Shown here one piece after another: positions 27,175 to 30,135 of a stretch of 57,318 nt of DNA. Origin of the DNA: an uncultured Candidatus Saccharibacteria bacterium (GTDB lineage Bacteria; Patescibacteriota; Minisyncoccia; Phycocordibacterales; EsbW-18). The stretch's first letter is position 1. Every line of letters starts with the position of its first letter. The position numbers were made by a program, and so were the translations under genes. The stretch covers positions 1 to 57,318 of the forward strand of contig CAZSMD010000001.1 in the NCBI GenBank assembly GCA_964608145.1, in the 5' to 3' direction. Under the pieces are notes generated by a model. The model made no database searches, had not been told where the DNA came from, and saw nothing but the letters and a program-made list of their open reading frames with translations.

Positions 27175-27801
27175 ATGAAACGATTTCCGGCATACGATGT
27201 ACCTGAGTTTGATGTGTTCAAAAAACTCGACACTCCCGCAAAGGTGCAGGATTTCCTTGAAACCTTCCCCATAAATTTTGAAGCGCACGGAAGCACCTGC
27301 CACTCGCCGCTCTATGTCCTCCGTCATAAAAAAGCGCAGTGTCTTGAGGGTGCACTGCTTGCCGCCGCAATTTTCTGGTACCACGGCGAGCGCCCGCTTT
27401 TGCTTGACCTTGAGACAACCGACGATGACGATGACCACGTCGTCGCCCTGTTTAAGCAGGACGGCTGTTGGGGCGCCGTAAGCAAAACAAACCATGCTGT
27501 TTTGCGTTATCGAGACCCTGTATTTAAAACCATTCGGGAACTCGTGCTGTCATATTTCAGTGAATATTTTCTTGACGACGGCAGAAAGACGCTCCGCCGG
27601 TATTCAGAACCATTTGACATGCTTCAGTTTGAAGATGCCTGGCTGACATCGCGCCGGCACATGTGGAACATTGAGGACGAAATCATCAAATCTCCGCACA
27701 AAAAAATCCTCACGCCGCGGCAGATTCGCAGACTGCGTCCCGCCGATCCGATTGAGAGCGCCGCAGGAAAACTTGTCGCGTGGAAGAAGAAAGAAAAATA
27801 G
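27175..27801 (+). CDS. transglutaminase-like cysteine-protease-fold protein
   Basis: Candidate Cys-His-Asp triad context: KAQCLEGALLAAA, DDHVVALF, WGAVSKTNH. Confidence 0.6.
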   Translation: MKRFPAYDVPEFDVFKKLDTPAKVQDFLETFPINFEAHGSTCHSPLYVLRHKKAQCLEGALLAAAIFWYHGERPLLLDLETTDDDDDHVVALFKQDGCWGAVSKTNHAVLRYRDPVFKTIRELVLSYFSEYFLDDGRKTLRRYSEPFDMLQFEDAWLTSRRHMWNIEDEIIKSPHKKILTPRQIRRLRPADPIESAAGKLVAWKKKEK

Positions 27802-27806
27802 TGCTG

Positions 27807-27881
27807 TGACCTCATCGGGATTTGAACCCGAGTTTGCGCCGTGAGAGGGCGCCGTCCTGGACCAGGCTAGACGATGAGGCC
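27807..27881 (-). tRNA. tRNA-Glu (anticodon CUC), no encoded CCA
   Basis: Minus strand GGCCUCAUCGUCUAGCCUGGUCCAGGACGGCGCCCUCUCACGGCGCAAACUCGGGUUCAAAUCCCGAUGAGGUCA. 7-bp acceptor, anticodon stem GCGCC/GGCGC, loop CUCUCAC, T arm UCGGG-UUCAAAU-CCCGA. Confidence 0.93.
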
Positions 27882-27889
27882 AATTTTTT

Positions 27890-27997
27890 ACAGAACACCT
27901 AATCATTCTGCCTTGGTGCACTCTCACGGCACCGTGAGAGGGGTGAGACAGTGCGGGGCACTGTCGAACCACGGACCTTGGCGAACAATGAGGCCGT
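27890..27997 (-). ncRNA. tRNA-Glu-derived structured RNA (degenerate tandem tRNA copy or novel small RNA; outer arms also resemble 4.5S RNA), cotranscribed with tRNA-Glu
   Basis: ORF-free. Starts GGCCUCAU, the same as tRNA positions 1-8, 114 nt upstream of the tRNA. Shares the 11-mer CCCUCUCACGG with the tRNA anticodon arm. Perfect hairpins at 27947-27965 and 27921-27940. Own promoter. Confidence 0.55.
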
Positions 27998-28003
27998 GCG
28001 GTG

Positions 28004-28032
28004 ATAATACCAAAAAACTCCCATGTTTCCAA
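28004..28032 (-). promoter_or_regulatory. sigma70-type promoter TTGGAA-17-TATTAT driving the structured RNA plus tRNA-Glu
   Basis: Minus strand: TTGGAA (28027-28032), 17-nt spacer, TATTAT (28004-28009). The predicted start falls 0-2 nt before GGCCUCAU. Confidence 0.6.
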
Positions 28033-28125
28033 GGTTTTATGTATGTGTTAAAAAATATTTTGCACTTTTCCGTTTTTGGTGTACTTTATCGAACAGACAA
28101 CCAGCCCCCACAAGGAGGTGGCGCA

Positions 28126-28332
28126 ATGGGAGGACCCGAAAGAGTCGTGGCGCGCATCCAACAGTTGTGCGAAGCACTCTCGAACGACGTGGGGAAGACC
28201 AGCATGGAGTACGCTGTGCTCAGGGTCTGGGCCGTGTTCGACCCGCGTTTTACGTTCGCGGGAGTGAACTGCAAGGAGGTCATCCGGGACTATTTCCACC
28301 CCGACCAGGAGTCCCTTCCCGGGCTCTCTTGA
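28126..28332 (+). CDS. hypothetical small protein P1 (68 aa)
   Basis: AAGGAGG 7 nt upstream of ATG: MGGPERVVARIQQLCEALSNDVGKTSMEYAVLRVWAVFDPRF... Followed by its own terminator. This is an internal start within track ORF 27874-28332. Confidence 0.6.
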   Translation: MGGPERVVARIQQLCEALSNDVGKTSMEYAVLRVWAVFDPRFTFAGVNCKEVIRDYFHPDQESLPGLS

Positions 28333-28352
28333 GCAAGCACTCGTTGTACAGA

Positions 28353-28378
28353 GGCGGCCGCACGGCCGCCTTTTCTCT
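28353..28378 (+). terminator. intrinsic terminator after P1
   Basis: GGCGGCCG CA CGGCCGCC followed by TTTTCTCTT. Confidence 0.7.
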
Positions 28379-28432
28379 TATTGACTTTATACCGCAAAAG
28401 AACAGAATCAAGAGCAGAGAAAGGGGGTCTTT

Positions 28433-28648
28433 ATGGAAATGAAGTTTCCACCGGGAACCTGGGTCGGAGACACCATCGGATACCTCGGCGTCAACGGCGG
28501 TATCGTCGTCTCTGCCCGCACATCAAGCTGGCCTGGGTTTGACGGCGGCAGACCGTATTACCTCTACACCGTCCGTCTTAAGGACGGCAGCACCCGCGAC
28601 GAGGCCGAGTGTTATCTCTTTTCCTTTGAGAAAGAGAAGTCTGCGTGA
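28433..28648 (+). CDS. hypothetical small soluble protein P2 (71 aa)
   Basis: AAAGGGGG RBS. MEMKFPPGTWVGDTIGYLGVNGGIVVSARTSSWPGFDGGRPYYLYTVRLKDGSTRDEAECYLFSFEKEKSA is beta-rich (SH3-like guess). Confidence 0.6.
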   Translation: MEMKFPPGTWVGDTIGYLGVNGGIVVSARTSSWPGFDGGRPYYLYTVRLKDGSTRDEAECYLFSFEKEKSA

Positions 28649-28767
28649 GCGTCCATACGTTGTTCAAGGCGGGCATCGCGACACTTCTCGTCGGAGGACT
28701 CATCGTTCTGTGTTCCGTGAGCGTTGCGTATACGCTCATCCGTGGAAAACCTGTGCGCTTTACATGA
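28645..28767 (+). CDS. 40-aa hydrophobic peptide P3, translationally coupled to P2 (GTGA overlap); below the ORF-track size cutoff
   Basis: Own translation: (M)SVHTLFKAGIATLLVGGLIVLCSVSVAYTLIRGKPVRFT. One TM helix and a basic C-terminus. Its GTG overlaps the P2 TGA stop. Confidence 0.5.
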   Translation: MSVHTLFKAGIATLLVGGLIVLCSVSVAYTLIRGKPVRFT

Positions 28768-28768
28768 A

Positions 28769-28801
28769 GCGGCGGTCGAGTTGCTCGACCGCCGCGTTTT
28801 T
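28769..28801 (+). terminator. strong intrinsic terminator after P3
   Basis: GCGGCGGTCGAG TTG CTCGACCGCCGC followed by GTTTTT. Confidence 0.8.
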
Positions 28802-28848
28802 GCGCCTTGTGTTTTTACCTCTCACTTCACGATTTACTCTCCTCATTT

Positions 28849-30135
28849 TTACCTCTCCTTCCACGCTTTTCCCTGCCGAACCAGGAGTTTTTCCTTCTTT
28901 TCGGGTTCCGCCATGACATGTTCAACGACATGCTCGAGACGAACACCTTGCGAACCCTTTACAAGCACCACATCACCTTCCGCGACAACATTTGCGAGAT
29001 ATGCCCCCGCTTGGTGCGCATTGCTATAGAGCGATACATTTGAGAGCCCGTGCTGCTGTGCACTTTTCGCTGTCTCTTGAACAGAGGAACCGACACAGAC
29101 AAGCATACTCACTGTTTTTGCGGCCTGCTCACCCAAAAATGCATGCGCCTCTGACGAATGTTTGCCGAGTTCCCGCATATCTCCGAGAACGGCGATTTTC
29201 CTTCCCTGTGTCGAAATCTCACTCAGCGTTTCAAGAGCGTGTTCCGCGGCAATTGGGGACGCATTATACGAATCATCAATAATCACGCTGCCCTTTTTCC
29301 CGGGAACAAGGTGCATACGCCCGGGCGGTGTTTTAAACGTACTTAGCGCCTCGGTCATCTCCACGACACTAATCCCCTGTGAAAGCCCTACGGAAAGCGC
29401 GGCAAGCACGGGGTACATGATGTGCCGTCCGAGTACATCGTGAAGACGTATCGGCACAACATTTCCTTCAAACATCACTTTGAAACTTACTCCCTCAGGG
29501 CGTCCTGCCTCGTCATATTCAATCGCATAGTAGTCGGCATACAGGTCCGCATCCTGGTTATAACCAAACGTATAGACGCGATTTTTTATGCTGCCCGACA
29601 GTTCGCGCACTTTTTCATCGTCATAGCCGAGAAGAGCGACGCCGTTTGGTTTGAGCGCCTTGAGAATCATGCTTTTTTCAACAAAAACCGCATGCGGGGA
29701 AGAAAAAAATTCAACGTGCACCGGTGTCTCGGCGACAAGCGTAATCACCGCGGCGTCAAGCCGTACCCACCGTACAAGCCGTTCCATGTCACCCGGATGA
29801 TCAACGCCCATTTCAAGCACGACCCAGTCGGGATAACTGTGGAAACCGAAAGCAACCCAAAAACCTCGCAGGATATTCATCAGCCATCCACCCGGGCTAT
29901 CCCACGCGGTGTCGAGTCCTAAGATGGTCAGCGGAACGCCCAAATCCGAATTAAAACTTTTATCGCTCTTCGCAACAGTAAACAGAGAACCGAAGATGGT
30001 CGCAATGGCGTCCTTCGTTGTCGTTTTTCCAACGCTTCCGGTGACTCCGATGACACGCGGTTTAAAACGCCACAACACTACCCGCGCCTCAAACGTGAGC
30101 ATTGCAACAACAATTTTTTTAAGAAACGATTTCAT
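28849..30135 (-). CDS. murF: UDP-N-acetylmuramoyl-tripeptide--D-alanyl-D-alanine ligase
   Basis: VIGVTGSVGKTTTKD P-loop with Mur ligase middle and C-terminal domains. Sits in the dcw cluster. Confidence 0.92.
   Translation of the reverse strand: MKSFLKKIVVAMLTFEARVVLWRFKPRVIGVTGSVGKTTTKDAIATIFGSLFTVAKSDKSFNSDLGVPLTILGLDTAWDSPGGWLMNILRGFWVAFGFHSYPDWVVLEMGVDHPGDMERLVRWVRLDAAVITLVAETPVHVEFFSSPHAVFVEKSMILKALKPNGVALLGYDDEKVRELSGSIKNRVYTFGYNQDADLYADYYAIEYDEAGRPEGVSFKVMFEGNVVPIRLHDVLGRHIMYPVLAALSVGLSQGISVVEMTEALSTFKTPPGRMHLVPGKKGSVIIDDSYNASPIAAEHALETLSEISTQGRKIAVLGDMRELGKHSSEAHAFLGEQAAKTVSMLVCVGSSVQETAKSAQQHGLSNVSLYSNAHQAGAYLANVVAEGDVVLVKGSQGVRLEHVVEHVMAEPEKKEKLLVRQGKAWKER

Follow-up and report, generated by a model that had tools for sequence, protein, structure and literature searches.

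Three small genes at a tRNA-Glu/murF junction

We analysed a 57,318-nt stretch of DNA (the window) from an uncultured Candidatus Saccharibacteria bacterium (contig CAZSMD010000001.1 of assembly GCA_964608145.1), in which three small open reading frames (ORFs), here called P1, P2 and P3, lie on the plus strand between a tRNA-Glu gene and murF. Comparison with related genomes indicates that the three are real genes under purifying selection. They are kept together in three lineages, and P2 and P3 are coupled in two of them. The features of the locus, in window coordinates, are as follows.

27806-27881, minus strand: tRNA-Glu(CTC), the conserved neighbour of the trio, given as context, with no part in a mechanism implied
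28112-28118, plus strand: P1 Shine-Dalgarno sequence AAGGAGG, read from the sequence, 7 nt upstream of the ATG
28126-28332, plus strand: P1, 68 aa, ATG start, from the ORF listing
28350-28380, plus strand: terminator after P1, a 10-bp GC-rich hairpin (28350-28373) followed by the T-tract TTTTCTCTT; -19.1 kcal/mol, z -3.7
28381-28408, plus strand: P2-P3 promoter-like site TTGACT-16-CAGAAT, from a sigma-70-type scan
28433-28648, plus strand: P2, 71 aa, ATG start, AGGGGG ribosome-binding site 5 nt upstream
28645-28767, plus strand: P3, 40 aa, GTG start overlapping the TGA stop of P2 (GTGA)
28769-28801, plus strand: terminator after P3, a 12-bp stem with 10 GC pairs (28769-28795) and a GTTTTTG T-tract; -26.4 kcal/mol, z -5.0
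28849-30135, minus strand: murF, end of the mraZ-mraW-ftsL-like-PBP-murF (dcw) cluster (PBP, penicillin-binding protein), convergent with P3

These features agree with a preliminary description of the locus made from the letters alone. P1 is present with its 68 aa, its AAGGAGG and its own GC hairpin and T-tract, as is the 71-aa ORF of P2, the AlphaFold model of which is beta-rich, as had been supposed. The sequence of P3 and its GTG/TGA overlap with P2 are exactly as given, the 12-bp stem closing P2-P3 is there, and so is the context of tRNA-Glu and the end of the dcw cluster. The statement that no member belongs to a known family also held, as Pfam, NCBIfam, PHROGs, PADLOC and PDB sequences gave no significant match.

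The order in the window is therefore P1 and a terminator, then P2-P3 and a terminator. The GTG of P3 is the first start codon past an in-frame stop five codons upstream, and its ribosome-binding site is weak and purine-rich. On the minus strand, a sigma-70-type scan of 28400-28850, which recognises consensus promoters only, found no promoter-like or terminator-like site, and there was no Rfam match; antisense read-through into P3 from the convergent murF may occur. At the trio locus, nine Logan contigs match the window with 97-100% identity, on the strength of which we take them to be from the same species. In six of these sister contigs the loop of the P3 terminator (28781-28783) reads CAA, the reverse complement of the TTG of the window, with the stem unchanged, which amounts to a hairpin-loop inversion.

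The trio is kept together in three lineages

In 1.84 billion protein representatives and 5.8 billion clusters, P2 has three cluster-level relatives in total. An exhaustive HMMER search of the representatives with P2 found P0009 (68 aa, 40% identical and likewise beginning with MEMKFP) and P0007 (84 aa), and a profile search added P0010. A look-up of their clusters returned neither names nor accessions. P2 homologues scored well above shuffled sequences (z 6.7-23), and P2 identity is 33-43% across all lineage pairs, which corresponds to about equal distances. Word-indexed homologue searches with P1 and P2 returned the queries only, and P2-profile scans of JGI metagenome contigs and of IMG/VR returned nothing.

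All the P2 relatives adjoin the murF end of the dcw cluster in related Patescibacteria, namely in contigs L036-L039 (GCA_964631485.1), L040-L043 (GCA_964443645.1) and L044 (a wastewater contig). The tRNA-Glu(CTC) gene is adjacent to the trio in the three lineages wherever the contig extends that far, and in both of the other lineages with readable DNA the P2 homologue comes with a single-pass peptide like P3. The lineages that share the trio at this junction have MurF proteins as low as 49% identical. Below, a prime denotes the counterpart of a window gene in another lineage.

The wiring of the trio differs between lineages. In L040/L043 the stop of the P2 homologue (L040 355-609) is overlapped by 7 nt by a 41-aa ORF (603-728; MVNPVKVGLFLVLTGVTAGMFFFAAGYRLLVGRPSPYGNGR), the P3' of this lineage, which has an ATG start, AAGGAGG 5 nt upstream and a 13-bp terminator after it. 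A 76-aa ORF upstream overlaps the P2 homologue by ATGA, and in L043 the whole trio has a single promoter-like site (TTGACA-17-TATCGT) and a single terminator, i.e. it is one operon. In L036/L037 a 35-aa P3' (MPKWFQLAVAGVVVGASVVFFSFAVGYKLYKSVTR; L036 5418-5525) lies directly behind tRNA-Glu, with the ribosome-binding site AAAGGAGG and a hairpin of its own. It is followed in L036 by a 74-aa P1' gene with its own TTGACA-16-TATGAT site and terminator, and P2' comes last, behind TTGACA-16-CAGAAT, the same hexamer pair as in the window. The P1' and P3' terminators of L036 were found by scan or folding and the terminator-like hairpin after P2' by eye only; in the gap between the tRNA and P3' neither a promoter nor a strong terminator came up in the scan.

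The stop-start overlap of P2 and P3 is thus seen in the window (GTGA) and in L040/L043 (7 nt), but not in L036. The expectation that a short transmembrane ORF goes with P2 homologues was borne out: in L040/L043 this ORF overlaps the P2' stop, and in L036 it is in the same cluster, upstream. The division of the locus into two autonomous units, on the other hand, did not survive comparison, as the P1-position gene travels with P2 and P3 in three lineages, and P1' of L043 is translationally coupled to P2' within one operon.

Outside the three lineages, tblastn and hidden Markov model (HMM) scans of 60+ MurF-anchored Patescibacteria loci (GTDB, JGI) found no P1, P2 or P3, and HMMs of the three found no paralogue within the window. 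Several more distant relatives have tRNA-Glu directly after murF and no trio, so the trio sits at a junction that is otherwise empty or carries other lineage-specific genes. We found no description of such a trio in the literature.

P2 is predicted to be a small SH3-like barrel

Modelled with AlphaFold2 (AF2) from a 4-sequence alignment, P2 forms a five-strand barrel (strands 10-13, 23-31, 42-48, 54-58 and 62-64), with a predicted local distance difference test score (pLDDT) of 86.7 and a predicted template-modelling score (pTM) of 0.74. The AF2 model from the single sequence was unusable (pLDDT 50.6) and was not used. Foldseek matched the barrel to the eS4 KOW domain, to PetP and to small phage DUF2158/KOW/SH3-C proteins (template-modelling scores, TM, of 0.6-0.7; probability ~1), PetP (7r0w_V) being a full-length structural match (TM 0.62/0.68). 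P2 is therefore predicted to have a generic SH3-like small-barrel fold, without membership of a family.

Sequence searches are in line with this. P2 has no Pfam match at E <= 1, and the best hit of a PDB profile search was the SH3-like region of L2 at E 0.67. Its homologues match no KOW-, DUF2158- or SH3-type family at E <= 5 (one unrelated match had E 0.19). The P2 family is acidic (isoelectric point, pI, 4.8-6.0). No recognisable DNA-binding domain was found in P2, nor any ribbon-helix-helix, helix-turn-helix, AbrB or Phd family or other toxin-antitoxin or defence family (Pfam, NCBIfam, PADLOC).

Giant repeat proteins (P0003-P0006, P0008) also scored against P2 and were rejected as homologues, their score being a sum over 5-10 repeated short matches around the YYLYTV hairpin. 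The matches are cell-wall-binding, PKD or Calx-type repeats; as P2, which has no signal peptide, matches none of those Pfam models, we regard the similarity as a motif-level resemblance. P2 residues 31-65 (SWPGFDGGRPYYLYTVRLKDGSTRDEAECYLFS) resemble two consecutive cell-wall-binding-type hairpins of a 1090-aa protein (44% over 35 residues), and this match recurs 7 times, inflating the E-value to 7e-22.

P3 is a predicted single-pass membrane peptide

P3 consists of a 24-residue uncharged core with an N-flank of +1 and a C-tail of +3 (RGKPVRFT), and has a maximal 19-residue hydropathy of 2.35. The four P3 variants share this build: a core of 21-24 uncharged residues, an N-flank of +1, a C-flank of +2/+3, and no acidic residue in the C-tail. 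Because of the positive-inside rule, P3 is predicted to have its N terminus out and its C terminus in, so that its basic tail would share a compartment with P2 and P1. The peptides of the window, L040 (41 aa) and L036 (35 aa) align with a common mid-helix Gly and an (A/G)Y(K/R/T)L motif, and their similarity exceeds that of composition-matched shuffles (z 3.6-6.6, p <= 0.0045).

By exact look-up, P3 has never been called as a gene in the window's species; the 35-aa P3' is called in L037 and L038. A PDB sequence search with the P3 profile returned nothing, and no PHROGs family matched any P3 peptide. P3 and its two relatives matched no toxin family (Hok/Gef, Ldr, TisB, Fst, Ibs and others) in Pfam or NCBIfam at E <= 1-5. 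P3 has the size and shape of a type I toxin (below ~60 aa, one transmembrane helix). It also has the traits of a small membrane regulator, with fewer than 50 aa, one transmembrane helix and positive-inside charges, and in three lineages it lies next to P2 and P1. We rejected a frameshift fusion of P2 and P3, since the two genes are separate in all lineages and P3' is relocated in L036.

One strain, L006, carries a 49-nt patch over the 3' half of P3 (window 28716-28764) with 16 substitutions, within DNA that is otherwise ~99% identical. Frame, length and stop are kept, and the patched peptide ends ...CSASVLYQFINGKPVRFS. The pattern suggests recombination or gene conversion from a diverged, unsampled P3 allele.

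P1 and its counterparts

P1 is acidic (pI 5.2), with a residue pattern that looks helix-like by eye, and matched no family in Pfam, NCBIfam, PHROGs or PADLOC. Some gene callers extend it to 97 aa (start 28039); we rejected this version, as the extension enters a segment whose place is taken by other sequence in sister strains. On the contigs of those strains P1 is called with 68 aa, and its sequence is the same in all. The position in L043 that aligns with the P1 Shine-Dalgarno sequence reads ACGGAGA.

The P1 motif VLRVWAVFDPRF corresponds to LLRMWSVLDATF in the 74-aa protein of L036 (shuffle z 4.5, p 0.0025; hhalign P 7.7e-4). Only the shuffle test and hhalign detect this motif; BLASTP gave no alignment of P1 with the P1-position proteins of L036 and L040. 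PDB sequence searches with P1 and with P1' of L036 returned nothing.

Selection and divergence

We compared codon usage of the three ORFs with that of true genes and of shadow ORFs. True genes scored 0.36±0.16 and shadow ORFs -0.2; P1 scored 0.10, P2 0.20 and P3 0.30. Each of the three is the best of its six frames, and only P3 is clearly within the range of true genes, P1 and P2 falling under the 95th percentile of shadow ORFs. On its own, codon usage is weak proof that P1, P2 and P3 are genes; it is their conservation in other lineages that makes the trio more than chance ORFs.

Between L036 and L044 (dS ~1; for P1', the available part only), the ratio of nonsynonymous to synonymous substitution rates (dN/dS) is 0.12 for P2' and 0.23 for P1', compared with 0.25 for the neighbouring PIN-PhoH gene. 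By these values P2' and P1' are ordinary proteins under constraint. Three coding single-nucleotide polymorphisms separate the strains of the window's species, and all three are synonymous (the contigs were fetched by exact P2 sequence, which biases the count for P2 only).

Between the window and L040, the proteins of the dcw cluster are 70% (MurF), 76% (PBP), 75% (FtsL-like, 105 aa), 78% (MraW) and 95% (MraZ) identical, and those of the trio are 43% (P2), 24% (P3) and 13% (P1) identical. Given this divergence and the L006 patch, the module is under selection and yet, in one branch or more, has changed fast or by replacement of alleles.

Source lineage and flanking sequences

The best full-length matches of the window's MurF among GTDB genomes and JGI metagenomes are 45-50% identical (one 157-residue fragment reaches 56%), which points to a poorly sampled lineage of the candidate phyla radiation (CPR). 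They come from Patescibacteria/CPR metagenome-assembled genomes (MAGs) labelled Taylorbacteria, Parcubacteria or 'Saccharibacteria'. The genes around the trio are housekeeping genes (ogt-like, tRNA-Glu, murF, PBP), and the GC content of the trio is 0.55-0.57 against ~0.52 in its surroundings.

Between the ogt-like gene and tRNA-Glu lies a gene for a 208-aa protein (27175-27801, plus strand), identical in sister strains and without a Pfam or NCBIfam family; the sole trace is a weak transglutaminase-like match (DUF553, E 0.065). Exact look-ups of this protein and of MurF gave no further alleles of the cassette, and several contigs end at the tRNA.

The structure of the tRNA-Glu segment (window 27803-28069; L001 2260-2559) varies between strains of the species: the window, L003 and L008 have the tRNA on the minus strand, and L001, L002 and L006 have it on the plus strand, with entirely different flanks. 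The breakpoints lie exactly at the stop of the 208-aa gene and ~55 nt upstream of the P1 start, and several assemblies break at this segment (L082-L084).

Between tRNA-Glu and a TTGGAA-17-TATTAT promoter-like site, a stretch of ~115 nt is very similar in nucleotide sequence in the window (27882-28000, minus strand) and L043 (485-603, minus strand). The mean column identity of 80% refers to an alignment of window and L043 that includes the tRNA and less conserved flanks; MurF is 70% identical in protein. In L043 the stretch opens with a copy of the 5' half of tRNA-Glu (GGCCTCATCGTCTAGCCTGGTCCA). It folds into an outer stem and two conserved hairpins (z -3.8 and -3.4), and one difference between window and L043, spotted by eye, is A-C on the plus strand, which on the minus strand would read as a G-U pair. 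The stretch, without an Rfam match, is possibly a structured leader, or else a tRNA-like RNA.

A further non-coding element of ~165 nt lies 3' of tRNA-Glu in L001 (2375-2555) and L043 (241-408) and is absent from the window. It consists of a terminator hairpin and then sequence that ends in a direct repeat of the tRNA 3' end (AAATCCCGATGAGGTCAC). Some strains of the window's species share it with the L043 species, the two having it in opposite orientations with respect to P1. Its appearance is that of an att-type scar or of a tandem tRNA copy that has decayed.

On the other side of the trio, a direct repeat (TTTTTACCTCTC; 28812-28857, 34 nt spacing) runs across the stop codon of murF. In contig L005 exactly one unit of 34 nt has been lost and a stop codon is kept, and in six sister contigs the murF stop is TGA, not TAA (28850 T to C). 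In L036 and L044 a PIN-PhoH ATPase gene (L036 6357-7814; L044 618-1751) is found between the P2 homologue and murF, where the window and L040 have nothing. Two distant Patescibacteria MAGs have a different 72-aa protein with two transmembrane helices (MKGLHMVTF...) downstream of murF (L009 5216-5434; L011 6265-6483), on account of which the junction seems to collect lineage-specific small membrane genes.

Discussion

We tentatively favour, at a little less than an even chance, the view that P1, P2 and P3 are partners of one narrow-clade small-protein module at the cytoplasmic membrane, acting as a non-lethal adaptor or regulator. That the trio is one module follows from its being kept while its wiring changes between the window, L043 and L036. 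P3 would insert as a single transmembrane helix, N-out/C-in, with a conserved interfacial Tyr and its basic tail (RGKPVRFT) on the cytoplasmic side. P2, the acidic SH3-like barrel, would be made in step with P3 via the GTGA overlap and could dock on the P3 tail or on a membrane partner marked by P3, and P1 may be a third, fast-changing partner or modulator. The module would then act on a larger membrane complex, in the manner of small membrane proteins and of peripheral subunits with an SH3 fold, such as PetP; its fixed position beside murF/PBP suggests envelope synthesis or division as a possible target. Physical contact among P2, P3 and P1, the lack of toxicity and the envelope link are what we infer.

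Systems in which a small membrane protein acts with a co-encoded partner include UgtS-UgtL, CydX-CydAB and KdpF-KdpABC (PMC12648545). P3 is like these proteins in having fewer than 50 aa, one transmembrane helix and short flanks, in lying in or near the operon of its presumed partner, and in being lineage-restricted, with low sequence conservation despite a conserved position. However, there is no homology, and the partners here are two tiny soluble proteins rather than a large membrane complex. P2, with a predicted five-strand barrel of ~65-70 residues (TM 0.6-0.7), resembles PetP, DUF2158 (YodC-like) proteins of phages and bacteria, and the KOW domain of eS4. PetP is a soluble 64-aa SH3-fold peripheral subunit on the cytoplasmic face of cytochrome b6f. 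P2 differs from these barrels in that it has no sequence membership, with all Foldseek E-values above 1e-3, and in that it is acidic, unlike RNA-binding KOW domains.

Several observations weigh against an adaptor. No Foldseek match of P2 has an E-value better than 6e-3, and the superfold matched is very common. The 76-aa P1-position protein of L040 has no significant similarity to P1 by BLASTP, shuffling or hhalign, and is equivalent to it in position only. The trio has diverged between the window and L040 to a much greater extent than the genes around it (70-95% identical), and P3 carries the recombined patch in L006; both patterns are seen more typically in conflict genes than in housekeeping adaptors. 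That the trio adjoins the dcw cluster, moreover, may simply follow from the location of tRNA-Glu.

A second reading takes the trio to be a toxin-antitoxin or other conflict module, in which P3 would be a membrane-depolarising toxin, P2, produced immediately before it, its protein antitoxin, and P1 a regulator or second antitoxin. Small membrane toxins have fewer than 60 aa, one transmembrane helix and short charged ends (PMC12648545), and P3 shares its size, single helix and cationic ends with Hok, TisB, Ldr, Fst and SpoIISA/SpoIISB-SpoIISC. The upstream ORF with coupled translation recalls mok-hok, and the tripartite layout recalls omega-epsilon-zeta and SpoIISABC. The soluble-then-hydrophobic order with a stop-start overlap in two lineages, the divergence and the patch just mentioned, and the rearrangement of the adjoining tRNA region between strains would all suit such a module. 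However, there is no homology to these toxins; no toxin, antitoxin, holin or defence model was matched in Pfam, NCBIfam, PADLOC or PHROGs; P2 lacks a recognisable DNA-binding domain and is a folded conserved protein, not a leader ORF; and the scan for consensus promoters found no antisense promoter-like site over P3, nor did any other antisense RNA signal appear. The trio is vertically inherited, single-copy and syntenic across lineages with MurF 49% identical. The patchy, mobile distribution of type II toxin-antitoxin systems was not seen, as the trio is at the same site in three lineages, with none in IMG/VR and no paralogue in the window. P2' and P1' are under ordinary purifying selection (L036 against L044). 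In L036 P3' lies upstream, directly behind the tRNA, with a strong ribosome-binding site and uncoupled from P2', which is a poor fit to a potent toxin. We therefore consider a conflict module possible but unlikely. A particular form of it, doubtful to much the same degree, would be a tripartite CPR addiction module in which P2 captures the basic G-K/R-P tail of the P3 toxin and P1 is a specificity or regulatory factor, with alleles swapped by recombination between the tRNA-Glu and murF flanks.

It is also conceivable, but rather improbable, that the three genes are functionally unrelated and share a permissive tRNA-Glu/murF site, P3 being a stand-alone regulator of some other membrane protein. 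The separate promoter-like sites and terminators in the window and L036, the different position of P3' in L036 and the weak or undetectable homology of P1 would be explained in this way, but the co-occurrence of all three types in each of three lineages, and of none in the other MurF-anchored loci scanned, would not, and nor would the tightly overlapped single operon of L043 or the P2-P3 overlap kept in two lineages. That the trio is cargo without host function, left over from a mobile element integrated at tRNA-Glu, is suggested by the distant relatives with tRNA-Glu directly after murF and no trio, and by the direct repeat of the tRNA 3' end in sister strains and L043. However, the repeat brackets only the ~165-nt non-coding piece and not the trio, no integrase or phage-type gene is among the called neighbours, the GC content is near that of the surroundings, and the trio is under purifying selection and retained in three lineages, which makes such an origin very improbable. 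A holin or prophage origin was rejected, there being no endolysin or lysis context, housekeeping neighbours and no Pfam holin family; PHROGs gave no significant match (best E 0.0097, to a family of unknown function). Finally, the absence of P3 from the gene calls of the window's species, its weak purine-rich ribosome-binding site there, and the codon scores of P1 and P2 below the 95th percentile of shadow ORFs could mean that P3 or the whole trio are untranslated chance ORFs. This we regard as extremely improbable, given P3-like ORFs with ATG and strong ribosome-binding sites in two other lineages, the 35-aa version called in L037 and L038, similarity in excess of composition, dN/dS well below 1 and a confidently predicted fold for P2.

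The preliminary description had placed the genes in a non-housekeeping spot next to a tRNA and proposed a two-component toxin/immunity or signalling module. The spot is not simply a mobile one, as the same tRNA-Glu/murF junction is occupied across lineages and the locus shows no phage, plasmid or defence-island signal and no integrase- or phage-like gene among its called neighbours. As to the proposed module, the link between P2 and P3 is biological, and a role in membrane signalling or as an adaptor is compatible with the data, whereas the positive evidence for a toxin goes no further than the size and shape of P3.

The general logic of the proposed membrane module, which we continue to favour, is familiar, but its proteins form an extremely rare new family set, with four P2 clusters among ~15 billion proteins. 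CPR genomes are small, come from uncultured organisms and hold many unannotated small genes. Here, three ORFs of 40-71 codons, one of them (P3) never called in its species, could be recognised by comparison alone as real, selected and functionally linked, and the SH3-like barrel and single-pass peptide among them make a concrete pair that can be tested. Should this pair be a membrane adaptor, it would be a minimal model for the docking of an SH3 fold on small membrane proteins; if it is a toxin-antitoxin system, it would represent a new type of protein-neutralised membrane toxin in reduced-genome symbionts.

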